64,000 bases of DNA from Escherichia coli (GCF_009931435.1 NZ_CP043415.1); one strand, 5' to 3'; positions 6,933 to 46,031 are shown, numbered from the stretch's first letter. Notes: generated by a model from the sequence alone, not told the origin. Numbers and translations are program-made.

Positions 6933-7247
6933 ATGGAAAAGCGATCTTTTAAAGAAAAACTGGAAATAATCAGAAACATAATAAGAGAGTCGTTACTGGG
7001 AAATGCGGCAATTATTGCGCTGATATATGCAGCATCACATTCATTACCGGTCAATGCCTTCCCTGACTATCTTGTAATAAGTTTATTAAGTATCGCAGCA
7101 GTCATCGTTGTATTATGGTTATTTTCAATTATCTATATTTATTTTTGTGAGCTATTCAGAAGCCACTGGATTGCGGTATGGTTTATCATATGGTCTTCAG
7201 TAATCAACCTCATTATTTTGTATGGTTTTTATGACCATTTTATATGA
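6933..7247 (+). CDS. artA: ArtA, anti-sense-oriented small membrane protein of the tra region
   Basis: 104-aa hydrophobic ORF on the opposite strand between traQ and trbA, exactly as artA in F. Confidence 0.65.
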   Translation: MEKRSFKEKLEIIRNIIRESLLGNAAIIALIYAASHSLPVNAFPDYLVISLLSIAAVIVVLWLFSIIYIYFCELFRSHWIAVWFIIWSSVINLIILYGFYDHFI

Positions 7248-7248
7248 C

Positions 7249-7596
7249 TTAGCCTGTCATAAGCCCCCTTATAAAAAACCACATCACTCCGGACCATACC
7301 GATGACAACACAATACAGATAAATATTCTTCTGAACCTGTCGAAGCTCGTAACGTCCGGTAATGCGGCCGCAACTATTGAAACAACCAGTGCTGCGCCCT
7401 GACTCATAATTGCACCACACAGAAACCAGAGACTGGCGGTAAGCACATATAAACACGCGATATTAATAACAAGGAAAACCAGTGAGCTCAGGAGAAACAT
7501 TTTCCTGTCATTACGCTCAGAAAAGAAATAACCGGCAATAATGACAAACATTAACAGAACAACACCTGTAAACATTTTCAAATAATCTTCACTCAT
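7249..7596 (-). CDS. trbA: TrbA membrane protein
   Basis: 115 aa, hydrophobic, located between traF and artA as in F. Confidence 0.7.
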   Translation of the reverse strand: MSEDYLKMFTGVVLLMFVIIAGYFFSERNDRKMFLLSSLVFLVINIACLYVLTASLWFLCGAIMSQGAALVVSIVAAALPDVTSFDRFRRIFICIVLSSVWSGVMWFFIRGLMTG

Positions 7597-22929: not shown

Positions 22930-23260
22930 AAACAAACAATATATTTTCGTGCTCTCTATTCTGCACCTTATGACGAATCACCATTAGATTCATCATACTA
23001 AAATCACGATTCACTATACGAATCAGCAATCATCAAATGACGAATCTAATATAGATTCACGCGCCAAGTAAATAGATGTTTTCAAAAAAAATAGTCATTA
23101 CTGAATCATTGACAATTCGTGATAGATTCACTATCGAATCTATCACGAATCTCTGCAATATAATTCAAAATTATATAATATAAATATAGTTCATTAATTA
23201 CATGATTTAAAACACAAATCAGCAAAAACTTGTTTTTGCGTGGGGTGTGGTGCTTTTGGT
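22930..23260. other. oriT: oriT: origin of transfer with TraM/TraY/IHF binding region and F-type nic site (~23248/23249)
   Basis: Contains TTTGCGTGGGGTGT|GGTGCTTTTGGTGGTGAGAACCACCAACC, the F oriT nick-region sequence; AT-rich repeats toward traM. Confidence 0.85.
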
Positions 23261-26718: not shown

Positions 26719-27438
26719 TCACGCTGCCTCCCGGAGTTTGTTCGGCACCATCCACCGCTCCATCTCACGAACAGCATGACCGACCACCCTTGCCGCCATA
26801 CCAGCCTCTGCGATGACCTGCCAGAATGGCATATCCTGCCACTGCCAGCGTTCCATTCCGGCCAGTGACGGAAAACGCTCGCCCCACTGCCAGAACAGGG
26901 TTTCCAGGTCATGCTCTGCCACCCGGTCACTCCAGCGTGCATGCCAGCTTCCGACTGTTTCCGGCGAATGGAATGCCAGTTCGATTTCAGCCTGAGCGAC
27001 CAGCGCCTGGTACGCACGGGCTTTCTGCTCTGCCTCCCTCGCCTGCTGGCGGCTGTACTTCTGCATGACCAGCGCGGATTTATGGCGACTGCGTTCCCTG
27101 ACACGAAACCGCACCGACGGGAACAAGCGCTCTGCTGCATCACCGGGAAGGGGAAGGAGGCAGACCTCGCCCTGTGTTTCAATCAGCACATCGATGGCAT
27201 ACAGCCACTGAAGACGGTTGCCGTGCAGTTCTTCTGCGGTCAGGGACGGCATGAAAAATCGCAGGTCAGACAGCGATATCCTGCGGCTTCCGTTCAGACA
27301 GCGGAAAAACGCCCCCGCATACGGATATTCAGCCAGCGTGTTACCCTGATGGCGGCGTTTTTCGGTCTCCGCCACCGCCCGCCATGCGGCCTGTTGCTCT
27401 GTGCTGAGAGGAACCAGTGCCTGTGAACGTGCGCTCAT
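26719..27438 (-). CDS. psiA: PsiA, plasmid SOS inhibition protein A
   Basis: 239 aa, [78 protein letters not shown]...; start overlaps the psiB stop. Confidence 0.93.
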
Positions 27439-27869
27439 GCCTGACCTCCTTCCGCCATCAGGATATGGATGATGTCACTGACGCTGTACCCCTGCGCGTC
27501 CAGTGACGCCGCCAGTGCCAGTGAATGGCTGACGGCTTCCGGTGCAAACCGCCGCTGTACCTGAACCACCGCAAACGGCTCACCACCGGCATTCACCAGA
27601 ACCAGCACCCAGACCTGAGAGACATCGCCCGGTGAACATAACGCCAGGTGGAAACGTTCGTGGGCAGGCGTGAAACGGACCTGGACGGGGAAAAATCCGC
27701 CAAACTCGCTGCCGTACTCGCCGTTCATCGTCCAGTTGTCCGGCGCATCCAGTTCCCGCATCACGGCGTGTGTCAGCTCACGACGTTCATCACTTCCGGC
27801 TGCCCGGATATCTTCATATTCCTGTGCGCTCATGGTCTGTAATACATTCAGGGTCAGTTCAGTTTTCAT
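27435..27869 (-). CDS. psiB: PsiB, plasmid SOS inhibition protein B (RecA inhibitor)
   Basis: 144 aa from [66 protein letters not shown]..., recognisable as F PsiB. Confidence 0.95.
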
Positions 27870-27923
27870 CACGGTATCTCCCTTGCTGCCGCCCCGTCTC
27901 CGGCGGGGCGGTGTGGTTGTTTA

Positions 27924-31844
<3,921 letters not shown>

Positions 31845-31906
31845 TAGTACCTCCCAAAACGGTAATAATGATTGTCTGCCGGACGTGTCCCCGTCCGGCA
31901 CCTCTC

Positions 31907-32742
<836 letters not shown>

Positions 32743-32759
32743 GATGTGCCTCCTTCTGT

Positions 32760-33408
32760 TGATGTTTTCAGCCCCCATCATCTTTTGAGTTTCGGGAGCC
32801 GCGGTTTTGACGTTTTGCGGGGACCTGCCTTTTGTTCCCTCCGGTATTCACCATCACCTTTTTGAGAACCTTCGCCGCAAGGGGCATCACTGCCACGGAC
32901 GGAAACGACTGTCCGGGGGCAGACCGCAAAAGTTTTTGCCTGCTTTTGGGCAAAAACTTTTGCGGGATGTGCATTTCACCCCTGGACTGGCGGAGACGGT
33001 TGTGGCTGTCTTTGCCCCCGGCGACAGGGGCTTAAACAGGTGAATGGCACCGGACAGAACAACGGGCAGGGACCCGCCGCAACGACGTGAAGCGCGGTTT
33101 GCGAAACGGCGTTGCCCCTTACATCCCGGCGGCCTTTTGCCGGGATGCCAGGAGCGCAGGCCACGGCGCGACAGAGGCGGCGCGACCGGAACGGTCGCTG
33201 CAAGCCCGGGGTTTTCACGCATCGGACCGTAGCGACAGCCCGAAACCGCGCCAGCGGGTTCGGCGGAGACTGGCAGGTGCGCCAGCAGCTGCCTGTCGGA
33301 GTCGGGCCTGACGACCGGATGCCGCCAGGCAGCCGGGAGCCGAAGGTGCGCCCGGCAGACAGGACAACACTGCAGTAGTCAGAATCAGAGCAGCAGGAAA
33401 AAGAAGAA
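32760..33408 (-). repeat. Leading-region repeat copy B (Frpo/ssi-like), immediately upstream of ssb
   Basis: Near-identical to copy A over ~600 bp, with the same hairpins. Confidence 0.7.
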
Positions 33409-33626: not shown

Positions 33627-34190
33627 TCAGGCACGCAGACGAATAATCATCGTCGGGACATCGGTATAAGCAAACGTGCCGCGCGGCAGCTCCTCGCGGA
33701 CGTCAGAAAACGGTAACAGCTTCTCCTGCTGGCGTGGTCCGTTGAGACAGACGGCGACCAGCACGCCACCCGGACGCAACAGGGAAAAGGCCCGCAGGAT
33801 ATGCCGGATATCCTGCCCGTGGCTGAACGGCGGATTCATGATAACCCGGCTGTAATACTGCACTGGCTGCCATTCCATGAAGTCGCCACACTGAACCCTG
33901 ACACCGTTAAAATTTTCCCGCAGATACCGGACCAGCCCGCTGTTGATTTCCACCGCATCACACATGGCCCCCGGCGCGGTATCCCGAATCGCCCGCAGTA
34001 TGGCCCCGGTGCCGGCAGAGGGTTCCAGAATGTGATCACGGTTGCTGATCTCCGCCAGCATCACCAGGCGATCACAGACCGGGGCAGGAGTCACAAAAAG
34101 CTGAGATTCAGCCCGGATTTCAGCAACCGGCGCGGCGTTATCCAGCCTTGCGCGCATCAGCCGGATACGTTCTCTTAACTGACTGTGCAT
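33627..34190 (-). CDS. Putative SAM-dependent DNA adenine methyltransferase (small orphan MTase)
   Basis: 187 aa with motif I-like LEPSAGTGA and motif IV-like NPPF; no adjacent restriction gene. Confidence 0.65.
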   Translation of the reverse strand: MHSQLRERIRLMRARLDNAAPVAEIRAESQLFVTPAPVCDRLVMLAEISNRDHILEPSAGTGAILRAIRDTAPGAMCDAVEINSGLVRYLRENFNGVRVQCGDFMEWQPVQYYSRVIMNPPFSHGQDIRHILRAFSLLRPGGVLVAVCLNGPRQQEKLLPFSDVREELPRGTFAYTDVPTMIIRLRA

Positions 34191-34237
34191 ATCATTATCT
34201 CCGTCATCCCCCGGGGATTTTCCCGGGGGGATATACC

Positions 34238-35599
34238 TTATTTCTGTGGGATTTCCGTGATTTTCATGTCGGTGATATACACATTCACCAGGCGGAAATT
34301 ATTGTCCATTGTGCGGCGGTACCGGTATGCCCCGTGGTCTTCTGCTTCTGCCACACTGCGCACGGCCTTACAGTCCCGGGGCAGGGCGGCCCACTGTGCC
34401 TTTGTCATTTCCCGGAAACCTTCCCCCGGATAGTTGACTACCGGCGGACGCTTCGCGGCCTGACTGGCGACGGCAGCCTCTTCTGCCGATGGTGCTTTGT
34501 AGTCCGTGATGCGATCGGGCGTCACTTTCATCGTGCCGCTGTACCCGAGAAAACTGTAATTTGGCGTTGTGACTGAACTCACCGCCCCGTTGCTTTTGTT
34601 CACACGGATGATGGTCAGCCACTCGCCCCGGCTGAAAACCTGTCCGCCCGGCTCAAAATCCTGTGTCCGGGTAACCACGCCGCCGCTTTCGTCCAGCATG
34701 GCACGCTCATAGATCAGGCGGTTCTGATAGTGGTTAACCCAGCGTTGTTGATGCTGAATCTGCCGTTCATGACAGCGGATCGCAATTTCGCGGGCCTGCT
34801 CCGTGGTGATGATGTCATCATCCAGGGCCGACCATAACGATCGACTTCCTTCATACTGGCTTTTTTCTGCCGGGCGCGGATACGTATCCAGCGGGAAACA
34901 GGCGCTGATATGGTCATGACTGCTGATGAGTTTTGCCATATTCAGATCCAGCGATTCAGCCCGCCACATCGTCAGATATTTCTGCGACTGCGCGATGGTC
35001 TTTTCAGCCTTGCGCAAATCAGCTTCGATTTTTTTGATACGACGCCAGCGAACGTCCGGACGTTCTTTATACTTCGCGTGAAGCAGTGCCGACCGCGCCC
35101 GCTCTTCCCAGTATTCCGCACGTTCAAAGAGCATCACGGCTCGTTTCATGCCGTTTTCAATACGCTGCGCATCACGACGGGCGCGGCGTTCGCTGTGATG
35201 CCCCACAAGAATGGGCTGACCGGGCGGGATCATCGCGGCCAGTCTTTCCACTTCATCAAGTGCCTGTGCGGATTCACTGGCCCGCTTTCCGCTGTATCCG
35301 GTAAACCGCTCCGCCCGTGCTTCCTGACGTTCAGCGAGCGTGCTGTCTTCATCCTCAATCTCTCCGGCAAGTGAGAGGAGCACGTCTTCCCGGCCCGGTG
35401 TCCAGGCTGGCGCGACAAACAGCGCCTGTTTTGGTGCCCAGCGGAAACCGGCATCATGCACTTTTTTATACGTCTCCGGGTCAAGACGTGACACGGCATA
35501 CAGGCGCAGTTTGTTGTCATCCGGTGAGTAGGTCGCGCGGTACATCTGCACAGGGCTGGCGGCTTCCGGGGCGGTCATGGTGATTGCTGCTGATGTCAT
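34238..35599 (-). CDS. Conserved leading-region protein of unknown function, 453 aa
   Basis: Long charged ORF co-transcribed in orientation with the downstream MTase; no recognisable catalytic motif. Confidence 0.6.
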   Translation of the reverse strand: MTSAAITMTAPEAASPVQMYRATYSPDDNKLRLYAVSRLDPETYKKVHDAGFRWAPKQALFVAPAWTPGREDVLLSLAGEIEDEDSTLAERQEARAERFTGYSGKRASESAQALDEVERLAAMIPPGQPILVGHHSERRARRDAQRIENGMKRAVMLFERAEYWEERARSALLHAKYKERPDVRWRRIKKIEADLRKAEKTIAQSQKYLTMWRAESLDLNMAKLISSHDHISACFPLDTYPRPAEKSQYEGSRSLWSALDDDIITTEQAREIAIRCHERQIQHQQRWVNHYQNRLIYERAMLDESGGVVTRTQDFEPGGQVFSRGEWLTIIRVNKSNGAVSSVTTPNYSFLGYSGTMKVTPDRITDYKAPSAEEAAVASQAAKRPPVVNYPGEGFREMTKAQWAALPRDCKAVRSVAEAEDHGAYRYRRTMDNNFRLVNVYITDMKITEIPQK

Positions 35600-35650
35600 A
35601 AAATGTTCTCCTTCCGTCTGTTGCCGCCCCTCGCGGGGCGGCTCACCTCA

Positions 35651-35881
35651 TCAGTTAAAAGCGCGTTTCAGTTCGAGTGTGCGGAGCACCTGCCCGAAGG
35701 CCGTGTTTTTCATGGCGGGGATGTGTACACCACGCCCCCGGTGAAAACTCCGGGCAATGTGTCGCCCGAAGGCTTTCAGCACGGGGTCAATTTCCGGCGC
35801 GGGGATGTCTTCGCGTCTGAAACGGGGATGACGGCGGGGCTTTACAGCCGCTGCGGAAGGTGAAACAATACTTACTGTCAT
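35651..35881 (-). CDS. Hypothetical small protein
   Basis: 76-aa ORF, first ORF downstream of repeat copy C; weak support. Confidence 0.3.
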   Translation of the reverse strand: MTVSIVSPSAAAVKPRRHPRFRREDIPAPEIDPVLKAFGRHIARSFHRGRGVHIPAMKNTAFGQVLRTLELKRAFN

Positions 35882-36111
35882 AATTTAGCCTCTTATGACG
35901 TTAATTAATGAAACCGTAAAGACTGTTCGTGCAGTCTCTGCGGTGTGGATTAAGCAGGTCCCTGACCTGCTTTTTTCATATCTGCGTCTGACGTTCTCCG
36001 GTGTTTTCCTCCTTCTGTTCCTGCGTTCTCATTACCTGCCAGCCGGATGACTGACAGAACACATAAATGCGTATTGCCGGAGCCTGAAATAAATCCTGAT
36101 TTTTAAAGAAC

Positions 36112-36600
36112 ATCACCCGTTGAGTTTCGGGAGCCGCGGTTTTGACGTTTCGCGGGAACCTGCTGCTGTATTCCCTGTGGTATGAACTTCACCCGTTTGA
36201 GAACCTTCGCCGCAAGGGGCATCACTGCCACGGCCTGACGCACCTGTCCTGGGCAGAACGCAAAATTTTTTACCGGGTTTTGGGTAAAAAATTTTGTGGG
36301 CTGTTCATTTACCCTGGACAGTCAGTGCGGCAGGTTGTGGCTGTATGAGCCCCCGGCGACAGGGACTCATACGGGTGTGTGGCATCCGGCAGGCAATGAG
36401 CAGGGACCCGCCGCAATGACGGAGAGCGCGTGCGCGAAACGGCGTTGCGCCTCACATCCCGGCGGCCTTTTGCCGGGATGCCAGGAGCACAGGCCACGGC
36501 GCGACAAGGGTGGCGCGACCGTTCCGGTCGCTGCAAGCCCGGGGTTTTGCGGCGTCAGGGATGGAAGCCCGCCAGGGCGGAGACAGCTCCGCTGGCTCCG
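36112..36600 (-). repeat. Leading-region repeat copy C (diverged Frpo/ssi-like)
   Basis: Shares TTGAGTTTCGGGAGCCGCGGTTTTGACG, TTGAGAACCTTCGCCGCAAGGGGCATCACTGCCACGG and CCCGGCGGCCTTTTGCCGGGATGCCAGGAGC blocks with copies A and B. Confidence 0.65.
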
Positions 36601-36801
36601 TTCACGACAGCCCGCCCCGCAAGCGGGACGCCCGGGAAAGCCATAAACAGGAGAGCAACGAAAAGAAGAAGAGGAAGAAGAACAATAACAAGCACGGTAA
36701 CCACAGAAAAATAACATCAGAAAAAAACATTCCGGACACATCACAAACGGGAAGGGTAACGGGCGACGCGTCAGCGTGGCCCGCTTCCCTTCCGGCAGGC
36801 G

Positions 36802-37203
36802 TCAGCCTGCCAGGGGGGGTCGCGCGGGCTGACAGACGGCCTCCACCGCCTGCCCCTGTAACACAACGTCCATTGCTTCGCGTTCTTCCCTGACGAATGC
36901 GTCACCGTCGCCCCCGTTCTCACTCCCGACGGCATACAGGCGCTTCATTTCACTGCCAGCCAGCGCCATCACTTTTTCCAGCATCACCGCCGGAACTGTC
37001 ACCTGACGGCTGGCGCGCTTTTCTTCCATCAGTTCACGAACAACGTCATGAACAATGCTGACATCCGCACCATATTCAAAGGCATCGTCCAGCCGCTGCA
37101 TGACGGTTTCCAGCTCATCGTCTGACAGGTTCCAGTCCTGAGCCATATGGCGCACATCCCCACGGGTCAGCACCACGGCCAAAACGCATTCACTGTCCGG
37201 CAC
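36802..37203 (-). CDS. Conserved hypothetical protein, paralog of the 38947-39414 ORF
   Basis: 133 aa; shares the RQVTVPA motif and acidic character with the 155-aa ORF. Confidence 0.5.
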   Translation of the reverse strand: MPDSECVLAVVLTRGDVRHMAQDWNLSDDELETVMQRLDDAFEYGADVSIVHDVVRELMEEKRASRQVTVPAVMLEKVMALAGSEMKRLYAVGSENGGDGDAFVREEREAMDVVLQGQAVEAVCQPARPPLAG

Positions 37204-37292
37204 GTCTGTATCCAGTACATCGCGGATAATTTCTTTAACAGTACATGTTCTCGTCTTCTTTACAGGGGCGGCATTGCCGCCCCGTCCGTTAA

Positions 37293-37718
37293 TCAGTCCA
37301 GTGCCGCGTAAATCGCGTTACATTCGGGGTGAAATTCGATGTGGCTCCACAACTGCGCATCGCGCATCCGGTAAAGCTGGGTCAGTCCTGCATCCCCACT
37401 GTCGTGGTACAGCCACAACTGGCGGTTAATCACAAGGGAAGTCAGAATGATGCCTGCGGCATCGGCGCTGACCGTGCGGTCAAACCAGTTTTCACCGTTG
37501 ACCAGATGAAAACGGTCGCCATCCGGCATCATGTAACCGCCACCGTCCGGCAGGCGGATGAAGTGCCAGAATCCGCCTTCATATTCCGGCATCATTTTTT
37601 TCGCCAGCGCGTATACAGACGCTTCGGCATACAGAAAATCCAGGCCAAACAGGTAAGGCAGAAAAGACAGACGGTCGCACTCTTCAACGTTCAGAGTGAC
37701 AGGTTTCGCATACTGCAT
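37293..37718 (-). CDS. klcA: KlcA/ArdB-family antirestriction protein
   Basis: 141 aa, typical family length, with an [13 protein letters not shown]-type motif; leading-region location. Confidence 0.75.
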
Positions 37719-38131
37719 GATGTTTTCCTCCGTTGTTCACATATTCCGCGACACCGGGCGGTGCCGTGCCTCCATAAAAGCCGGGCGATAAGGCGGGGAT
37801 GCACAGGGCGCAAGGGAAGCCGCAGCCTGACGCACACGGCTGACGGGAGTTGGAGGGTGAGACAGCGAAATCTGAGCGGGTGAACGACCGGAAAATCACG
37901 GCAGACGGGAAGGAGGGACCGGGTGACCGCAGCGGCGAAGCGTACCCTTGCATCCCTGCCAGCCCGGCTAAGATGGAGGCACGGCACAGCCCGCACACGA
38001 CACGGCGGCCACATAACTGAAAATCCACAAGGCCATGCCCCGCATGGCTGGGTAAAGCGGAGCCGCCGGCGACTTCCTTTGTGCTCTGTCCGGGGACCGG
38101 CAGGAAAAAGGCGGGGATTTCCCCGCCATCA

Positions 38132-38902
38132 TCAGCCCCTGATTTTTGCCAGGGCATCCGCCATGCTGCGGATTTCATCCCGTGCCTCCAGAACAACCTC
38201 CCGCAGAATATCCCGGTCAAACCAGCGACGGGACGGTTCATCCGGTATACGCAGCACATCACAGACCAGACCACTGGCCAGGATATGCTCCACACACTCA
38301 CAGACCAGGTACATTTCCACAGAGGAAAAACGTGCGCCACGGTTCAGAATGGCATCGAGCACCACGGGCAGATTTTCGTCATCTTCATCAAGCCAGCAGG
38401 GGTAATCGCTTTCCTTCACAACCAGACGAAAGCGGCGCGTCTGGCGGGTCAGCAACGTCTGACCGGTGGTGGTCAGCGCCGCCCGGATACGCCGCGCATC
38501 GTCTGCCACCTGGTAACAGATGCTTCGTACTGCATTGCGCACCGCATCAAGAACTGCCCTGATTTCGTCTTCGGTCAGCCATTCACCGGCATACGGAAAA
38601 GACACCTGTGTTCCGTCTGCCGGAAGTACCGGCAGCGACTGCCACTGACTGCCGGACAGAACAAGTTCCGCCCCGGTTCCGGTCAGTTTCTGAATGGCGG
38701 AGGCCAGGTGCGGCGGCAGTACGCCATCGTGGCGGTTAACGAGTAACGTCGCCAGCCGGGGCGCATCCAGCCGCACGTAAATGCTGATCCAGCCCGGATA
38801 CTTCAGGTTACGCTGGTCAACATCCGTCTCTTCCGGCCAGCCCTGCGCCAGCAGCAGGTCGCGGGCATGACGACAAATCAGTGCATTCAGCGTTTTATTC
38901 AT
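38132..38902 (-). CDS. Conserved leading-region protein of unknown function, 256 aa
   Basis: ORF co-oriented with klcA; no recognisable motif. Confidence 0.5.
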
Positions 38903-38946
38903 GATTCATGGTCTCCCTGAATCGCCGCCCGGAGGCGGCGATAACA

Positions 38947-39414
38947 TCAGTCGTTTTCGTGCGTGTTGTTTTTCAGCAGGATGCGGGCCTGATTAACCAC
39001 CGCCTGACGGCGGGTAACGCATTCCGGGACGGCGAGGCCGTAATCACGGGCGGCCCATTCACGCTTCCACAATGCCTGTTCAGCGGTCTGAATCAGGGAC
39101 GCCAGCAGTTCAGCAGGGACGGTCACCTGGCGGTTTTCGCTCACGTTGCTGATAATCTCCATCGCCGCGGCGGAAGAAATACCGGACTCAATTCGCTGGT
39201 CTTCCGGGATGTCCTCCAGGCGCGCCAGGACGGTCCTGATTTCATGATCGGACAGGGAAATATCCATTCCGTCAGCGAGGGCCTGAATCTCTTCCGGGGA
39301 CCAGACAACCAGCATCAACGGCGTGTCTCCCGGATACTTTGCTGCCAGCTCCCGGCATAGCGTTTCGCATGTTCCGTACATTCTCGTCTCCTTCTCAATC
39401 TTTAAAGCACGCAT
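38947..39414 (-). CDS. Conserved hypothetical protein, paralog of the 36802-37203 ORF
   Basis: 155 aa; shares RQVTVPAELL with the 133-aa ORF. Confidence 0.5.
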   Translation of the reverse strand: MRALKIEKETRMYGTCETLCRELAAKYPGDTPLMLVVWSPEEIQALADGMDISLSDHEIRTVLARLEDIPEDQRIESGISSAAAMEIISNVSENRQVTVPAELLASLIQTAEQALWKREWAARDYGLAVPECVTRRQAVVNQARILLKNNTHEND

Positions 39415-39616
39415 CCAGTTCCAGAATTTCGGTATATGCCTCCATCAGGAGGCGGTTTGCGCGAAACAACGTCTGACGCACCAGACGTTCCGGAAGGGTG
39501 TCAGCATTAAAGCTGTACCGCCGCTCCATCTCATTCATGGTTGTACGCAGGTCGCACATGGCATTGGCCACCTCCGCCACTTCGGCGCGAAGTTTTTCGT
39601 GTCCGGCATAGTGCAT
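39395..39616 (-). CDS. Hypothetical small protein
   Basis: 73-aa ORF whose start overlaps the stop of the upstream MTase gene; likely translationally coupled. Confidence 0.4.
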   Translation of the reverse strand: MHYAGHEKLRAEVAEVANAMCDLRTTMNEMERRYSFNADTLPERLVRQTLFRANRLLMEAYTEILELDACFKD

Positions 39617-40300
39617 TTACGCAGCCTCCGGCATAAACCAGTCATCATTCGCGGCCCCCTGCTGCATGGCCCGTTGCACGGCGGAAAGGCGTTGCTGCCC
39701 GGCACGGTGATACTGCTCAAGCAGCTCGATACCGATATACCGGCGTCCGGACTGGAGGGCGGCGACGCAGGTTGAGCCGCTGCCTGCAAACGGGTCCAGC
39801 ACAATTGCGTTCGGGTGTGTGAAGCTCTCAATCAGCGGTTGCAGGCTGGTAACGGGCTTTTCCGTCGGGTGATGGCGATTGCCCGAATATTTCCAGCCCA
39901 GCACGTCCGGCAGCGGGTTTTGTGGCAGACGTGGACGGCCTTTTGCCAGGATGTAGGCGCATTCGTGGCGATAGCCCACATATGCGGCCTTCGATGTGTA
40001 GTTTTTGGTGAAGACCAGGTGACCAACCACGCTGAATCCCGCATTTTTCCAGGCGGCCACAAAGCGATCGACGCGGTTCCAGCCATAGAAGCTGACCATC
40101 AGCGCATCTTTTTTGAGTACGCGGTACATTTCATTACAGGCCGGTTGCAGCCATTCATCGGTTTTATCGCCAGCGATGGTGCGCCCGGAACGGTCACGGA
40201 AACCGACGAGGTACGGCGGGTCGGTGAGGATGAAATCAATGGCGTTATCAGGGATACGGGCTATAACATCGATGCAGTTACCGAGGACAAAACGGGACAT
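39617..40300 (-). CDS. Orphan DNA methyltransferase (beta-class N6-adenine/N4-cytosine MTase)
   Basis: 227 aa; DPPY motif near the N-terminus and DPFAGSGST (SAM-binding) near the C-terminus; no cognate endonuclease nearby. Confidence 0.85.
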   Translation of the reverse strand: MSRFVLGNCIDVIARIPDNAIDFILTDPPYLVGFRDRSGRTIAGDKTDEWLQPACNEMYRVLKKDALMVSFYGWNRVDRFVAAWKNAGFSVVGHLVFTKNYTSKAAYVGYRHECAYILAKGRPRLPQNPLPDVLGWKYSGNRHHPTEKPVTSLQPLIESFTHPNAIVLDPFAGSGSTCVAALQSGRRYIGIELLEQYHRAGQQRLSAVQRAMQQGAANDDWFMPEAA

Positions 40301-40683
40301 ACAAAACGCCTTCTCTTACAGAGGGCACCGGGAGGGCACCCCTGTGGTGCCCGTTCCCCGCTGCCTGTGGGCTGTTCACCGCGTCCGGTAACGGGTCAGG
40401 CCGACCGTGGAATACCGCAGCCGTCGTCTGTTTGACGGCAAGGTTATGCCGCGAAAGCGGCTTGAAGGGCGTTCATCAGAAAAGGGCGACAGGCTGGCGT
40501 ACACTGTCACCGACGCCAGCCGGGAGCGGTAAAAGCGCCCGTCCCGTGCCCGCCGGACGCGGGACACTGACCACAGGCAGCGTTTATGCCGCGCCGCGTC
40601 AGCCGGCGCAGTAAAAAGAGGAGCATGGCGACATCCTTTACCGGAAAAGAAACGGGCAGTTGCCCGCCCGTCTCCGTCATACT

Positions 40684-41586
40684 TCATCCACCGTAATGCG
40701 CCACCTTGTCGACTATCCACGCAGGTCCGGTGACTTCCGGCAGCTCATCGTCATCTGTCGGGGAAGACCATTCCAGTTCCCCCCACAGCACATCAACAAG
40801 CTCTCCACGCTCATATCGCTGCCAGCCACAGAAATTGCAGCCCTGTTCGGCGTACCAGTGCTCCAGCGTGCAGCCGAAACGGCGGCTTAATTCTGCAACA
40901 ACGTCGCTTTCCGGCTGACACCACGGCGTGTCGAAATCCACCTGAATGAAGTTTTCCCCCTGACTGCTGATATTCAGGTCATACCCACAAGGCCACTTCA
41001 CGCCATACCGTTCTGTATACCAGTGATATGCAGAAGGAACACCGTTCAGAACACCACCGTTAAAGCCATTCACTTCAACATCCAGGCGGGTCGGCAGAAC
41101 CGTCAGCAGGTCAAACGGCATGGTTTTTTCCGGCACTACGTTGTCACACAGACGGTTCCACCACACCGATACATCCTCGTTACCCCAGATGTCACACCAG
41201 TCACCTCTTTTTGCGGTGAAATGCACAGTGATGGTTTCCCTGACATCATCCGGTAACCCTTCCCAGCGACGCTGTCCAGTACCGCTCTGCAGCCAGAGTT
41301 CATGCAGCATCAGGCAGTTTTGCTCATCCAGCAGTACACCGTTCTGCAGGTGTGTCAGCCAGCGGGTGAACGCGATATTTTCCGTCGATACAGCACCACG
41401 TCCGGCAGCCGTCACTCCGGGGCACTGCTCAGAGCGGATATTTTCAGTGATCTGCAGAAGTCCGGCACTTCCGGCCAGAAACAGCTGAATACCTTCATTT
41501 GTGGCGCGGCGATAAAACGGTGTGACTGCACCGCTGGCCCGTCGTTTAATCTCAGCAATCTGTGCCGGTTCACCAGAAAAATGCAT
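40684..41586 (-). CDS. Conserved leading-region protein of unknown function, 300 aa, Cys/Trp-rich
   Basis: ORF whose ATG (41584-41586) lies a few nt from the group II intron 3' end; no assigned function. Confidence 0.55.
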   Translation of the reverse strand: MHFSGEPAQIAEIKRRASGAVTPFYRRATNEGIQLFLAGSAGLLQITENIRSEQCPGVTAAGRGAVSTENIAFTRWLTHLQNGVLLDEQNCLMLHELWLQSGTGQRRWEGLPDDVRETITVHFTAKRGDWCDIWGNEDVSVWWNRLCDNVVPEKTMPFDLLTVLPTRLDVEVNGFNGGVLNGVPSAYHWYTERYGVKWPCGYDLNISSQGENFIQVDFDTPWCQPESDVVAELSRRFGCTLEHWYAEQGCNFCGWQRYERGELVDVLWGELEWSSPTDDDELPEVTGPAWIVDKVAHYGG

Positions 41587-41594
41587 ACGATCGG

Positions 41595-43995
41595 GTAGCA
41601 GTGATGCATTACTGCATCACCGCCCCCTAAGAACCGTACGTGCCAGTTTCCCGGCATACGGCTCAAGCCTTTCTAAGCCCACTCTCATGAGCCGGTTTCA
41701 CTACATGTATACCTTTCGCATGAACAAGTGTGTGACACATCGGATGCAGCATAATCAAATTGGAGAGGCAGTTGCTCCCTCCATCGACTCGCCGTATGAT
41801 GTGATGAACCTGCCACTGGGAATCAGATGTAATCCTCTCATCACATATGGGGCATCGGCCCCGCTGCTCAAACCAGATTTGAATGAGCTTTTTCCGTCCT
41901 TGCAGTTTGTGCCGCATTTTGTCTGCACAACGCTCCTCAAAGTACATCTCCCATTGAGGATCGAACGGATTAGCTGCAATTTTAATCGGTTTAAACCGGT
42001 TGATAGGCGTATCGATTGCTTTCCTCAGATTTGCATACTGAGGCTTACCGTTGGCAAGGAGTTCTCCGGTAGCCGTGGAGAAAGACCAGTTTCGGGCACC
42101 TTGTTGATGGAAATATCTTTTCCGAATCCACTTCTTTCCCTTATTGGGATGACGCCGAACAGCCCAACGCCATAAAGCCAGCCAGATCTCATTGTCAACT
42201 TTGTTAAATGCGACCTTGGCCACAATGTGTTGATGGTAAGCCGCCCACCCTTTGATCATTGGGTTCAGCATGCGGATCAACGTAAGCTGATCCATAGCTT
42301 TGTTGCCTTTGATTACAGCGCGTATTTTCTTTAAAAAGGAACTGACATTGGCTTTAGAGGGTTTGATCAGCATCTTACCGCCATATTTGCGAATGTTCTG
42401 TCCAAGAAAATCAAATCCTTCCTCGATATGTGTGATTTTCGTCTTTTCCGGAGAAAGCATTAATCCTCTTTCAGCCATAAACCGCCTGACGACGGGTAAT
42501 ACCTGAGACTCAAGAAGTTCTTTTGACTCTCCAGTGATAATAAAATCATCAGCATATCTCACATAGTTAACTTTCGGGTTAACCAATCGTCCCTTGACTG
42601 TTCTCTTTTTAAACTCCGAAGCAAGAAGCGCCTCCAGTCCATCCAGAGCAATGTTAGCCAGTACAGGAGAAATTATTCCCCCCTGAGGAGTTCCTGAATT
42701 TACAGGGAATAACTGCCCCTTTTCCCTGTAACCCGCTTTAAGCCACTTTGTCAGGATTTGTCTGTCTGTTGAGGTGTTATCGATTAGCCATTGATGAGAT
42801 ATATTGTCAAAGCATCCCCGTATATCCCCCTCAAGCACCCATTCAGCGGATGTTTTCTGCGCAAGAACACAGAAGCACTGTGCTATCGCATCTGCAGTAG
42901 ACCTTCCAGTCCGAAAGCCGAAGGATCTCTGGTCAGCAGTGACTTCAGCAACGGGCTCAAGAGCCAGCAAATACAACGCCTGCATCGCCCGATCCTTCAT
43001 AGTGGGTATCCCAAGGGGACGAGACTTCCCATTTGACTTAGGTATATAAACCCGCTTAAGTGGCTGTGGTTTGTAACCACGCCGTTTCAGCAGGTTAATA
43101 GCAAGAAATTTAACCTCCGGGGAAGACCATGTCTGACCATCAACCCCAGGAGTACGTTTCCCGCTATTCTCTGTAACTCGTCTGACAGCAACTGCTCTGC
43201 CACTAAACGAGTGAGTCAGTATCCATTGCAAGGATTTGACCTTGCCATGTTTACCTTCTCGTGTTGCCTTTACGATACGCGCTTGCAGTCTCCGCACTTC
43301 CCGATAGCACTGACGCCAGTTGATACTGTGCCAGGAGTCACCGTTAAGTAAGGACGCACCTTTACAGGTTGTAGCCTGCTCAGTCATCTGCTTTTCCTTT
43401 CTGGAAGATTACTCAAACTCTCTCGTAATGAAAGACCCAGTGGAAGTCTGCCCGCTTTCGCGTAGGGTAATGTTGCCGGGCTCAACCCTTATCCGGTCCA
43501 TTACAGACTGGCATTCGCTTTTTCCACCTTCTTTTACCCGCACCGCCAACAGTATCCCTTGCGGTTAACCTGCCTCACGAGGCAGCGATACGGGCTTACC
43601 ATGTTCCACCTGAATAACAACAGTAGGTTAGACTCTGCTCACAACACCGGTGGTTTATTGTCCGTGTACCCCTAGCAAACAGAGGAGTAACCAACCACAT
43701 ACCTTTTGGTTCAAGCCTGTCAGCATCTTTGGCTTGTTCTGGTTAACGACGCTTCAGCAGTTCACATATGTTAGTCATGCTACCGAGCCTAGACCTCCTC
43801 CGCCTGATGCTGGCAGATTACATGTAACCTCACGGTTTCATGCGATCCGAAGATCCGGTTTCATTGTCCTGACAGCTTCACACCCCACCGTTACCAGTGA
43901 CGCATGTGTCAGTAGGCTACTGATGACGGAACATCAGGTTCCCTGACGGAATCGAACTCCGCTGGAACAATTATTCAGGCGACTTCATGTCGCAC
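41595..43995 (-). mobile_element. Group II intron (~2.4 kb) with intron-encoded RT-maturase-HNH protein
   Basis: Minus-strand 5' end GTGCGACATG at 43995; domain V GAGCCGTATGCCGGGAAACTGGCACGTACGGTTC at 41664-41631 overlapping the ORF stop; domain VI-like hairpin follows. 3' boundary approximate. Confidence 0.8.
41663..43387 (-). CDS. Group II intron-encoded protein (reverse transcriptase / maturase / HNH endonuclease)
   Basis: 574 aa; RT motif YVRYADDFII, maturase X region, C-terminal HNH block (CPICDERI…HHIIRRVDGGSNCLSNLIMLHPMCHTLVH). Confidence 0.92.
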   Translation of the reverse strand: MTEQATTCKGASLLNGDSWHSINWRQCYREVRRLQARIVKATREGKHGKVKSLQWILTHSFSGRAVAVRRVTENSGKRTPGVDGQTWSSPEVKFLAINLLKRRGYKPQPLKRVYIPKSNGKSRPLGIPTMKDRAMQALYLLALEPVAEVTADQRSFGFRTGRSTADAIAQCFCVLAQKTSAEWVLEGDIRGCFDNISHQWLIDNTSTDRQILTKWLKAGYREKGQLFPVNSGTPQGGIISPVLANIALDGLEALLASEFKKRTVKGRLVNPKVNYVRYADDFIITGESKELLESQVLPVVRRFMAERGLMLSPEKTKITHIEEGFDFLGQNIRKYGGKMLIKPSKANVSSFLKKIRAVIKGNKAMDQLTLIRMLNPMIKGWAAYHQHIVAKVAFNKVDNEIWLALWRWAVRRHPNKGKKWIRKRYFHQQGARNWSFSTATGELLANGKPQYANLRKAIDTPINRFKPIKIAANPFDPQWEMYFEERCADKMRHKLQGRKKLIQIWFEQRGRCPICDERITSDSQWQVHHIIRRVDGGSNCLSNLIMLHPMCHTLVHAKGIHVVKPAHESGLRKA

Positions 43996-44409
43996 ATTTG
44001 AGCACCAGTTTGGCATGGGAATTCTCCTCTCACATGCGGCCTCCACCAGGCCGTGCCGCACCTGTAACCGGGCGACCGCATACGAATGCAGGTGCGGCCC
44101 CGAAGCCGCAGCGCGTGGAGGAGGAACGACGAAACGTGACCGGGTGAGGAGGCCGGCGACAGCGACACACTTGCATCGGATGCAGCCCGGTTAACGTGCC
44201 GGCACGGCCTGGGTAACCAGGTATTTTGTCCACAGAACCGTGCACAAAATGCTGTGGATAAGCTGGACACAGCCGTCCACAGCAGGCATACAGCCACACC
44301 CTCAGAGAATTGAGCGTTTTTTAGTCACAATAATGACATTTGACTGTGTGTGGATTCAGTTATTAGAATACTGTATATGCATACAGCAAAAGAAAAGGGA
44401 GATGAGAAC

Positions 44410-44658
44410 ATGATCCGCATTGAAATTCTTTTCGACCGCCAGAGCACAAAAAACCTCAAATCAGGCACACTTCAGGCGCTACAGAATGAAATCGAACGAC
44501 GTCTGAAACCACACTACCCGGAAATCTGGCTGCGTATAGACCAGGGCAGCGCCCCGTCTGTATCTGTCACAGGAGCCCGCAACGACAAGGATAAAGAACG
44601 TATCCTGTCTCTGCTGGAAGAAATCTGGCAGGACGACAGCTGGCTGCCTGCAGCATGA
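44410..44658 (+). CDS. impC: ImpC, small regulator of the impCAB mutagenesis operon
   Basis: 82 aa from MIRIEILFDRQSTKNLKSGTLQALQNEIERRLKPHYPEIWLRIDQGSAPSV…; SD AAGGGAGA upstream. Confidence 0.85.
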   Translation: MIRIEILFDRQSTKNLKSGTLQALQNEIERRLKPHYPEIWLRIDQGSAPSVSVTGARNDKDKERILSLLEEIWQDDSWLPAA

Positions 44659-45074
44659 GTACCGTTTATCACCGTCCGGCTGACCCTTCAGGCAATGACA
44701 GTTACGTGCGACCGTTGTTTGCCGATCGTTGCCAGGCCGGTTTTCCTTCGCCTGCCACTGATTATGCTGAGCAGGAACTGGATCTGAACAGCTATTGCAT
44801 CAGCAGACCTGCAGCCACCTTCTTTCTGCGCGCCAGCGGTGAATCGATGAACCAGGCTGGCGTGCAGAATGGTGATCTGCTGGTAGTGGACAGGGCCGAA
44901 AAACCACAACACGGGGACATCGTTATCGCTGAGATCGACGGGGAGTTCACCGTCAAACGACTGCTGTTGCGCCCACGCCCGGCACTGGAGCCGGTTTCAG
45001 ACAGCCCGGAGTTCCGCACACTGTATCCGGAAAACATCTGTATTTTTGGTGTTGTCACTCACGTTGTTCATTGA
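44655..45074 (+). CDS. impA: ImpA (UmuD-like), C-terminus altered by a deletion
   Basis: 139 aa with LexA-like cleavage-site region (RASGESM) and catalytic domain; ends …GVVTHVVH, shorter than expected for UmuD-family proteins. Confidence 0.85.
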   Translation: MSTVYHRPADPSGNDSYVRPLFADRCQAGFPSPATDYAEQELDLNSYCISRPAATFFLRASGESMNQAGVQNGDLLVVDRAEKPQHGDIVIAEIDGEFTVKRLLLRPRPALEPVSDSPEFRTLYPENICIFGVVTHVVH

Positions 45075-46031
45075 TTTGCGGGGGGTGAACCGTTGCATCT
45101 CTCCGGAGGTTTTTGGTCATCAGCTCAGGGAACAAGTAAAGAGCTGGACAGGACTCGCCATGGGGGTGGGCATTGCACCTACAAAAACGCTGGCCAAAAG
45201 TGCACAGTGGGCAACAAAGCAATGGCCACAGTTTTCCGGTGTGGTCGCGCTGACGGCAGAAAACCGTAATCGGACCTTCAAGTTACTGGGGCAGCAGCCT
45301 GTTGGTGAAGTCTGGGGAGTAGGACGCAGACTGACGGAAAAGCTGAATGCGCAGGGTATTAACACAGCGCAGCAGCTGGCGCAGGCTAACACGGCATTCA
45401 TCCGGAAAAACTTCAGCGTCATTCTTGAGCATACAGTACGCGAACTCAACGGCGAGTCCTGCATATCTCCGGAAGAAGCCCCACCGGCAAAACAGCAGAT
45501 TGTCTGTAGCCGCAGTTTTGGTGAACGAATCACAGACAAAGATGCCATGCACCAGGCTGTTGTTCAGTATGCAGAGCGGGCCGCAGAGAAACTACGTGGG
45601 GAGCGTCAGTATTGCCGGCAGGTGGCGACATTTATACGAACGTCACCCTTTGCAGTGAAAGCCCCTGTTACAGCAATTCCGCTGTGGAAAAGCTTCCATT
45701 GCCTACACAGGACAGCCGGGACATTATTGCCGCAGCATGCAGAGCGTTAAACCATGTCTGGCGTGAAGGGTACCGCTATATGAAGGCAGGAGTCATGCTG
45801 GCTGATTTCACACCATCGGGTATAGCGCAGCCGGGATTATTTGATGAAATCCAGCCCCATAAAAACAGCGAAAAGTTAATGAAAACACTCGATGAACTGA
45901 ACCAGTCGGGAAAAGGGAAAGTGTGGTTTGCGGGGCGAGGAACCGCCCCTGAATGGCAAATGAAACGGGAAATGTTGAGTCAGTGTTATACAACTAAATG
46001 GCGAGATATTCCCCTGGCCAGGCTGGGTTAG
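45070..46031 (+). pseudogene. impB: impB (UmuC-like Y-family polymerase), N-terminally deleted and frameshifted
   Basis: Translation aligns to UmuC only from about residue 100 (…GVGIAPTKTLAK…); reading frame shifts near 45650-45665, with the C-terminal part continuing in another frame (45612-46031). Confidence 0.8.

Follow-up and report, generated by a model that had tools for sequence, protein, structure and literature searches.

Among Enterobacterales, antibiotic resistance travels to a large extent on IncF and IncI plasmids. Two of these plasmids, the IncI1 plasmid pESBL and plasmid F, carry described counterparts of the locus considered here, a block of seven open reading frames (ORFs; 36802-41586) in a 64,000-nucleotide (nt) stretch of an Escherichia coli plasmid (NZ_CP043415.1, assembly GCF_009931435.1; the whole stretch is called the window below). 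The leading regions of pESBL and F have the same gene order, with an operon for the methyltransferase M.EcoGIX (Hp9-Hp11) and a KlcA operon (Hp12), and the hairpins before the methyltransferase gene and before klcA are the same as those in the window. Both operons are induced in fresh transconjugants of pESBL and F, and the class 2 and class 3 promoters responsible have been mapped (PMC12672017). M.EcoGIX places N6-methyladenine at SAY sites on single strands, associates with DNA polymerase I, and methylates in vivo when cloned alone (PMC7736820); it protects pESBL from restriction on entry, and raises transfer to recipients proficient in restriction up to about 1000-fold (PMC4288162). For the KlcA family, the literature on inhibition of type I restriction in vivo covers only R64 ArdB, RP4 KlcA and an ssp2 deletion in F.

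The wider setting was charted by Samuel et al. (2024; PMC11541004), who clustered the leading-region genes of 21,907 elements and ranked the families in their Supplementary Table 1. The DUF1380 family (YcgB/YubF; n = 3957, position 19 from the origin of transfer, oriT) stands seventh, the methyltransferase eighth, KlcA ninth, YchA/YubG tenth (n = 3556), a 73-amino-acid (73-aa) family that we provisionally match to YubE, from its position 20 and from names and annotation, eleventh (n = 3388), YcjA/YubJ fourteenth (n = 3145), and DUF1281 (YubB) twenty-seventh (n = 1949). These authors described the families as leading-region-enriched, uncharacterised, probable anti-defence genes, so neither the genes nor the anti-defence hypothesis is novel here. 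Their anti-defence islands resemble the present block in proximity to oriT, in orientation relative to the transferred strand (T-strand), and in the mix of antirestriction genes, orphan methyltransferases and genes of no assigned function. With thousands of members each in that census, the five families treated below are among the commonest plasmid genes without a known function, and knowing what they do would explain how plasmids survive in defence-proficient hosts and could suggest ways to block their establishment. The present analysis adds corrected gene models (for yubB, yubJ and a spurious ORF within a hairpin), rules of co-inheritance, which are new here, and the removal of two misleading labels.

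We suggest, with a probability that we put at roughly 60%, that the block belongs to a conserved leading region made up of three hairpin-headed units, that these units are expressed in a burst, and that the five ORFs of no assigned function (YubB, YubE, YubF, YubJ and YubG/YchA) act in the recipient, some of them in accessory roles suggested by their co-inheritance with known genes. Three units, each behind a long T-strand hairpin, can be recognised: yubB by itself; the methyltransferase gene followed by yubE, yubF, yubG and a terminator; and ssp2 followed by klcA and yubJ. The spacers that hold the hairpins are about 330-410 nt long, and the folding of their T-strand DNA was scored as z against shuffled controls. 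In order from yubB, the features are as follows.

44017-44349, plus strand: spacer before yubB, z = -4.75.
44046-44211, plus strand: hairpin upstream of yubB exon 1, a candidate class-2-type single-strand promoter, from its fold and conservation.
43996-44016, minus strand: yubB exon 1, seven codons (MPNWCSN) preceded by GAGAGGAG, a good ribosome-binding site; N-terminus as in pESBL Hp8 and F.
41590-43995, minus strand: group II intron within yubB after codon 7, 2406 nt, 5' end GTGCG (Rfam RF02012 and RF00029).
40684-41589, minus strand: yubB exon 2, with DUF1281 and a C-terminal ferredoxin-like domain (Pfam PF06924, 1e-45; PF18406, 7.5e-15; PDB 2IJR).
40301-40683, plus strand: hairpin spacer upstream of the methyltransferase gene, a candidate class-3 single-strand promoter, z = -5.74.
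39617-40300, minus strand: gene for a beta-class N6-adenine DNA methyltransferase (yubD/yfeA), 227 aa, M.EcoGIX ortholog (NF010253, 1.8e-149; 94.3% identity to pESBL M.EcoGIX).
39395-39616, minus strand: yubE, 73 aa, its start abutting the methyltransferase stop (TAAATG) (phrog_4830, 5.8e-33; PF27407 in homologs).
38947-39381, minus strand: yubF, the first DUF1380 paralog (PF07128), 144 aa from Met12 (open frame to 39414).
38132-38902, minus strand: yubG/ychA, 256 aa, the final gene of the methyltransferase operon.
38110-38127, minus strand: intrinsic terminator directly 3' of yubG, GGCGGGG-AAAT-CCCCGCC and then TTTTT.
37719-38131, plus strand: spacer before klcA, z = -5.17.
37755-37993, plus strand: long hairpin 5' of klcA, showing covariation and corresponding to F ssp2, a class-2 single-strand promoter.
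37293-37718, minus strand: klcA/ardB-type antirestriction gene (yubI/yfgB), 141 aa (PDB 2KMG, E = 2.5e-18 over residues 5-141; ArdB 2WJ9, 7e-8; phrog_10132, "anti-restriction protein").
36802-37293, minus strand: yubJ, the second DUF1380 paralog by homology to YubF, with a start-codon lesion.

The placement of the block follows from the strand that is transferred. The F-type nick sequence GCGTGGGGTGT/GGTGCTTT (the slash marks the nick) has a single exact occurrence in the window, at 23238-23256 on the plus strand, with the nick point at 23248/23249 and entry into the recipient proceeding from 23249 upward. The plus strand is therefore the transferred strand and, since all seven ORFs of the block, checked at their coordinates, lie on the minus strand, the incoming strand is their template. 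The block lies 13.6-18.3 kilobases (kb) from the nick on the leading side, and between the two stand psiA (26719-27438), psiB (27435-27872), a ParB-like gene and ssb (32203-32781). The original prediction, which had placed a co-oriented string of an antirestriction gene, an orphan methyltransferase gene and unassigned ORFs in a leading region, is borne out on these points. The whole 4.8-kb block is 100% identical in several E. coli IncF plasmids (e.g., NZ_CP065971), and at 90% identity or more it is present in upwards of 5000 PLSDB plasmids, which come from Escherichia, Klebsiella, Salmonella and Shigella; these searches listed at least 5000 near-identical records and were of no use for sampling diversity. 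Plasmid F has the identical gene set and order with 93% DNA identity to the block, as does pESBL with proteins 88-97% identical, and the block is the oriT-distal part of a conserved leading region common to IncF and IncI1 plasmids. Unlike pESBL and F, the present plasmid has an intron within yubB, a 5-nt lesion at the yubJ start, and, between yubJ and ssb, a module for DUF3560 and an S-adenosylmethionine (SAM) methyltransferase with a duplicated Frpo element.

The two genes with a recognisable function are what they had been taken for. Full-length homology to the solved KlcA and ArdB structures places the antirestriction gene in the KlcA/ArdB family (PF03230). The methyltransferase has its DPPY motif near the N-terminus and FAGSGST near the C-terminus, the beta-class order, and its neighbours are a hairpin spacer and yubE, with no nuclease gene beside it and PADLOC matches limited to the methyltransferase itself. 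It is, judging by sequence, the ortholog of M.EcoGIX, and an orphan enzyme as had been proposed.

Comparison between plasmids draws on about 30 loci in roughly six lineages, collected as contigs with distant YubG homologs (24-42% identity) together with a YubF-anchored scan of species-representative genomes. The klcA hairpin is kept in 13 loci, including versions that precede ardA, with compensatory changes at 27 of 58 pairs. Wen et al. (PMC12672017) described its counterpart, a class-2 single-strand promoter. In F this element, ssp2, is a replication roadblock resolved by UvrD, and its deletion lowers transfer, from 21-fold down to undetectable, in non-isogenic E. coli (bioRxiv 10.64898/2026.01.09.698686). 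The spacer upstream of the methyltransferase gene is of the same sequence type in seven loci, whereas an alignment of all spacers in this position mixes two hairpin types and gives a poor consensus; a class-3 promoter 5' of M.EcoGIX is conserved in F (PMC12672017). Over 73 nt, the hairpin upstream of yubB is 74% identical to the klcA hairpin's 3' arm, and the two have class-2 core blocks in common. The yubB hairpin is kept in pESBL, in a further two close loci of IncF/IncI-like type and in a pair of distant ones, with compensatory changes at 17 of 51 pairs; a seventh locus (L028) has a different, class-3-like hairpin before DUF1281 (7065-7396). No sigma-70-like promoter was found on the coding strand within 36600-44400. 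Structure and covariation thus agree with single-strand hairpin promoters, and promoter activity itself comes from pESBL and F only (PMC12672017).

One annotated gene falls inside a hairpin. RefSeq lists a 103-aa "hypothetical protein" (yubC-like) at 40376-40687 on the minus strand, with an isoelectric point of 11.8; compared with F, its ratio of nonsynonymous to synonymous substitution (dN/dS) is 0.64 with 30 gaps, and it evolves like noncoding DNA. This ORF is probably not a gene, and its annotation is probably an artefact repeated in thousands of records.

Across the sampled loci the hairpins and the genes behind them are exchanged. Hairpin types are swapped, a class-2-like element standing before the methyltransferase gene in some loci (L011 and L019-L023, compared with 40301-40683 in the window), and KlcA and ArdA interchange behind the same hairpin, which indicates that promoter and effector modules recombine.

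We propose that the hairpins would serve as promoters only while the DNA is single-stranded, and that expression of the units would come in a short burst, once the DNA is in the new recipient, and would then cease. Such a burst has been shown for the methyltransferase and klcA units in pESBL and F, and by homology the same would be expected of the present plasmid. The five ORFs would then most probably act in the recipient during establishment. Anti-defence or establishment roles for them seem plausible to us because transconjugants show induction of the KlcA and M.EcoGIX operons and because deletion of the klcA-hairpin promoter lowers transfer of F.

What the individual proteins might do is suggested by the company they keep. 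The methyltransferase gene, yubE, yubF and yubG form an unbroken run in each of the 20 loci with YubF and sufficient flanking sequence, and in three independent YubG lineages that lack the methyltransferase, YubE and YubF are likewise absent. In every locus with downstream sequence, an antirestriction gene (KlcA/ArdB or ArdA) comes 170-430 nt after YubG. YubJ follows KlcA in 11 of 16 loci and follows ArdA in none of nine, and DUF1281 usually opens the region, next to umuDC or partition genes. We read this pattern as modular co-inheritance, in which YubE and YubF appear to be inherited together with the methyltransferase, YubJ together with KlcA, and YubG together with the unit formed by the hairpin and an antirestriction gene. 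On this basis YubE and YubF may be accessory to the single-strand methyltransferase and YubJ to KlcA, while YubG would be a constant companion of the hairpin-plus-antirestriction module; the proteins would widen the reach of the known anti-restriction functions, tune them or make them less toxic, or would block additional defences. It is conceivable, though we hold the idea tentatively and would not count on it, that DUF1380 and YubE represent a new class of proteins dedicated to partnering the anti-restriction effectors of plasmids; YubE and YubF would then tune or target M.EcoGIX (e.g., via its association with DNA polymerase I or by limiting toxic over-methylation), YubJ would extend or regulate KlcA, and YubG and DUF1281 would be novel-fold inhibitors of further defences.

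Two other families were seen among the sampled loci. In loci that lack the methyltransferase (L003, L006 and L007), the place upstream of YubG is taken by a conserved family whose members are about 156 aa long (MxKxTxIxLDxGxxALYxxGHYL...), and a family of small two-pass membrane proteins of 85-87 aa recurs at the region boundary (e.g., L005 5200-5466).

The five ORFs are real genes for small, acidic, soluble proteins. Pairwise dN/dS lies between 0.09 and 0.44 for all of them (against copies in F, Klebsiella, Escherichia sp. and Enterobacter), their lengths stay constant over 47-99% identity with hardly any insertions or deletions, and they are under purifying selection. Each is acidic and has a negative mean hydropathy, in keeping with a soluble protein. 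The block of genes without assignable function that the original prediction described is real, with the corrections to gene boundaries given below, and the searches it had called for were run on each ORF. Scans of every ORF against NCBIfam, PHROGs, PADLOC and Pfam placed the five only in families of unknown function (YubB, YubF and YubJ in DUF families), with no match at all in NCBIfam or PADLOC; searches of PDB and of a Pfam copy that lacks PF27407 gave no match for YubG or YubE, and PDB sequence searches gave none for YubG, YubF or YubE as single sequences, nor for YubG as a profile. Structure prediction, also called for, was applied to YubG and YubF; models were obtained for both, and neither gave a functional lead. 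Profile, PDB and (for YubG and YubF) fold searches having returned no characterised relative, the statement that these ORFs have no assignable function holds.

The original prediction had gone further and regarded these ORFs as candidates for anti-defence factors in their own right. One or more of them could be stand-alone inhibitors of defences other than classical restriction, working independently of their neighbours, and several facts agree with this. The same families are enriched in leading regions in T-strand orientation (PMC11541004); the net charges are strongly negative (-10 to -13 for DUF1380 and -20 for DUF1281) and comparable to the -9 of KlcA; the folds are novel or uninformative, as in many anti-defence proteins; and additional leading genes of potential importance may contribute to the effects of ssp2 deletion (bioRxiv 10.64898/2026.01.09.698686). 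We consider this explanation quite unlikely, given that none of the five resembles a known anti-defence protein, whether anti-CRISPR or anti-restriction, and that YubE and YubF are inherited strictly together with the methyltransferase, which speaks against full independence.

The main rival to the accessory reading is that the five are establishment factors directed at host physiology (replication, repair, transcription or the cost of acquisition) rather than at defence. YfjB/HerB, a zygotically induced ParB-like protein, is likewise a conserved early leading-region protein that began as an unassigned gene; it is a DNA-binding protein that reprograms transcription in the host, and transfer frequency does not change when it is deleted (PMC13370423), although it has no sequence or fold relation to the proteins considered here. 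The same regions also hold SSB, PsiA/PsiB, UmuD/UmuC and a homolog of the DNA polymerase III theta subunit, the association of M.EcoGIX with DNA polymerase I (PMC7736820) points in the same direction, and the lack of PADLOC, anti-CRISPR and anti-restriction similarity just described fits a role outside defence. Against this stands the tight, lineage-specific linkage of each protein to an anti-restriction gene. Further tandem DUF1380 paralogs lie beside these genes in Citrobacter loci (L026 and L028), and the repeated duplication and divergence of DUF1380 beside anti-restriction genes is a pattern commoner in conflict genes; nor do the five carry any DNA-binding or enzymatic signature. On balance we think a host-directed role unlikely, and prefer the view set out above, in which YubE, YubF and YubJ would be accessories to the anti-restriction genes with which they are inherited.

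The proteins of the methyltransferase operon repay a closer description. YubE is 73-74 aa long wherever it occurs, with dN/dS of 0.09-0.35; it is related to the 73-aa ORFs of the other loci at phmmer values of 1e-31 to 2e-46, and of these homologs the L005 and L010 proteins contain the newer Pfam domain PF27407, "YubE." The gene had been said to overlap the methyltransferase stop, whereas its ATG comes directly after the TAA and the two merely abut. YubF matches DUF1380 at 4e-52. The original prediction gave it 155 aa; the likeliest start is Met12 at 39381, behind AAGGAG. The proposed paralogy of the 133-aa and 155-aa ORFs, with RQVTVPA in common, is confirmed (BLASTP E = 2e-7 for YubF against YubJ, about 29% identity), and jackhmmer recovers both copies.

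The YubF model has six helices and is all-alpha, with a predicted local distance difference test (pLDDT) score of 82 and a predicted template-modelling (pTM) score of 0.50, and a fold search with it returned generic helical-hairpin matches only. A Pfam match of YubF to the acyl-carrier-like PP-binding family (E = 0.011) was dropped as not significant and unsupported by the fold search. YubG gave a confident model (pLDDT 91.4, pTM 0.84), for which Foldseek against AFDB50 found only uncharacterised family members in Enterobacterales. The family is narrow, with 181 representative clusters in 1.8 billion, no match was found among phage genomes, and hhalign detected no relation between YubG and DUF1380.

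Two labels attached to these families deserve correction. DUF1380 proteins are often named "adenine-specific methyltransferase" in UniProt, and in the census the DUF1380 family 14 is labelled "putative DNA methyltransferase" and family 10 is tagged "ArdA" (PMC11541004). The YubF model is all-alpha, not Rossmann-type, and no methyltransferase profile matches it; comparison of YubG with ArdA by hhalign gave a probability of 0.2%, far from profile homology. Neither "methyltransferase" for DUF1380 nor "ArdA" for YubG is supported by these results, and both names are misleading.

Two of the ORFs on which the original prediction laid most weight, the 300-aa protein and one member of the duplicated pair, prove to be mis-delimited or damaged in this plasmid. 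The Cys/Trp-rich composition reported for the first is correct (YubB has 15 Trp, 9 Cys, a net charge of -20 and dN/dS of 0.43). Its extent is not, as the reported ORF begins at an internal Met (41586) in exon 2 of an intron-split gene of 308 aa. In F and pESBL yubB starts eight codons earlier, with MPNWCSNR behind GAGAGGAG, and codon 8 lies at 41589 in the window; the seven codons before it, in exon 1, are absent from both the RefSeq annotation and the original prediction. The intervening DNA carries Rfam matches to intron domains 1-4 (RF02012, 43792-43938) and domain 5/6 (RF00029, 41590-41666) and an ORF for the reverse transcriptase/maturase (41663-43387). F has no intron at the exact insertion point, and the identical junction occurs in 154 PLSDB plasmids. 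The ATG at 41586 has no ribosome-binding site unless the intron is spliced, and as we read the DNA, yubB in this plasmid depends on splicing for its ribosome-binding site and first eight codons. A bacterial group II intron that interrupts a conserved protein gene with a brief single-strand expression window is unusual.

As to what YubB is, residues 13-266 match PDB 2IJR ("hypothetical protein Api92") at 1e-42. Api92, a structural-genomics target from a pathogenicity island of Yersinia pseudotuberculosis, has the same two-domain layout and is itself without a known function, so the match names the fold of YubB and not an activity. F's own yubB is frameshifted near codon 160 (L002 6875-7785); F is thus without this protein, which matters for deletion studies in F.

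The 133-aa ORF had been presented as an intact gene, yubJ. In F its start reads AGGAGACGAGAAC-ATG-TAC-TGT-ACT-GTT, and in the window AGAAGACGAGAAC-ATG-TAC-TGT-TAA; one TACTG repeat unit has been deleted at 37235-37246, and with these 5 nt the native ATG (37246) has gone out of frame and opens a three-codon mini-ORF (ATG TAC TGT TAA). The starts that remain, GTG at 37203 (133 aa) and the RefSeq ATT at 37293 (163 aa), both lack a Shine-Dalgarno sequence, the one at the native start has been weakened from AGGAG to AGAAG, and the C-terminus is altered relative to F. All DUF1380 proteins that we compared begin MY(G/C/A)(T/P) or MFAT, and given this conserved N-terminus the 133-aa GTG and 163-aa ATT models are makeshift. 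An intact N-terminus with its own ribosome-binding site is present in yubF and missing from the present yubJ, which is probably crippled in this plasmid, to judge from these changes. Among the plasmids that match the block best, numbering at least 5000, the lesion allele occurs in 13.

Several observations weigh against the reading of the five as establishment genes expressed in a burst, some of them accessories. The loci sampled for synteny are few and in part redundant, with YubF as the anchor for most, and five of the 16 KlcA loci have no yubJ. M.EcoGIX is active when cloned alone; its catalysis therefore does not depend on YubE or YubF, and any partnership with them would be accessory rather than obligatory. 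The yubB hairpin is a single-strand promoter by prediction. Fold searches with YubG and YubF gave no mechanistic hint, and a literature search by gene name (yub*, yff*, yfe*, yfg* and ychA) and by DUF number turned up no functional study of, and no activity for, the five. Transposon sequencing of pESBL scored Hp8-Hp13, the same genes, as not needed either to maintain the plasmid or to transfer it to E. coli K-12 (PMC4288162); such dispensability in K-12 is what one expects of an anti-defence gene, and equally of a dispensable one. Finally, copies decay in the wild, yubB being frameshifted in F and split by the intron here, and yubJ having lost its start here.

The last two points raise the possibility that some of the ORFs are passengers, dispensable or decaying, and that in this plasmid yubJ, and perhaps yubB, yield little or no protein. 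The damage to yubJ, the reliance of yubB on splicing and the transposon data for all five would fit such a view. We find it very improbable as an account of these genes, since dN/dS is well below 1 for all five over deep divergence, the yubJ lesion is rare, and the families are present in thousands of plasmids.

The remaining observations concern DNA around the block. Two class-1 Frpo/ssi-type elements on the plus strand (the T-strand), at 36140-36550 and 32805-33215, are 81% identical over 415 nt. The second precedes ssb, and the first, just after yubJ, heads a module without an F counterpart (33627-35881), consisting of a 76-aa ORF, DUF3560 and a class I SAM methyltransferase; the arrangement suggests that this module was acquired together with a copy of the Frpo promoter. 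An Rfam match to AS-pc01 (antisense RNA to pHK01_035, 98.9 bits) at 35876-35975 on the plus strand extends over the opening 6 nt of the 76-aa ORF (35651-35881) and over the leader upstream of it. Beyond the yubB unit, at 44350-46031 on the plus strand, dinI-like and umuD genes are intact and a umuC-like gene is split between two ORFs that overlap (45046-45750 and 45612-46031), making it probably a frameshifted pseudogene. Nearer the nick, an IS21-family element (istA, istB; 28795-30596, plus strand) splits the ParB-like gene yfjB/herB into two minus-strand parts (27924-28742 and 30606-31901), and HerB is probably inactivated in this plasmid.

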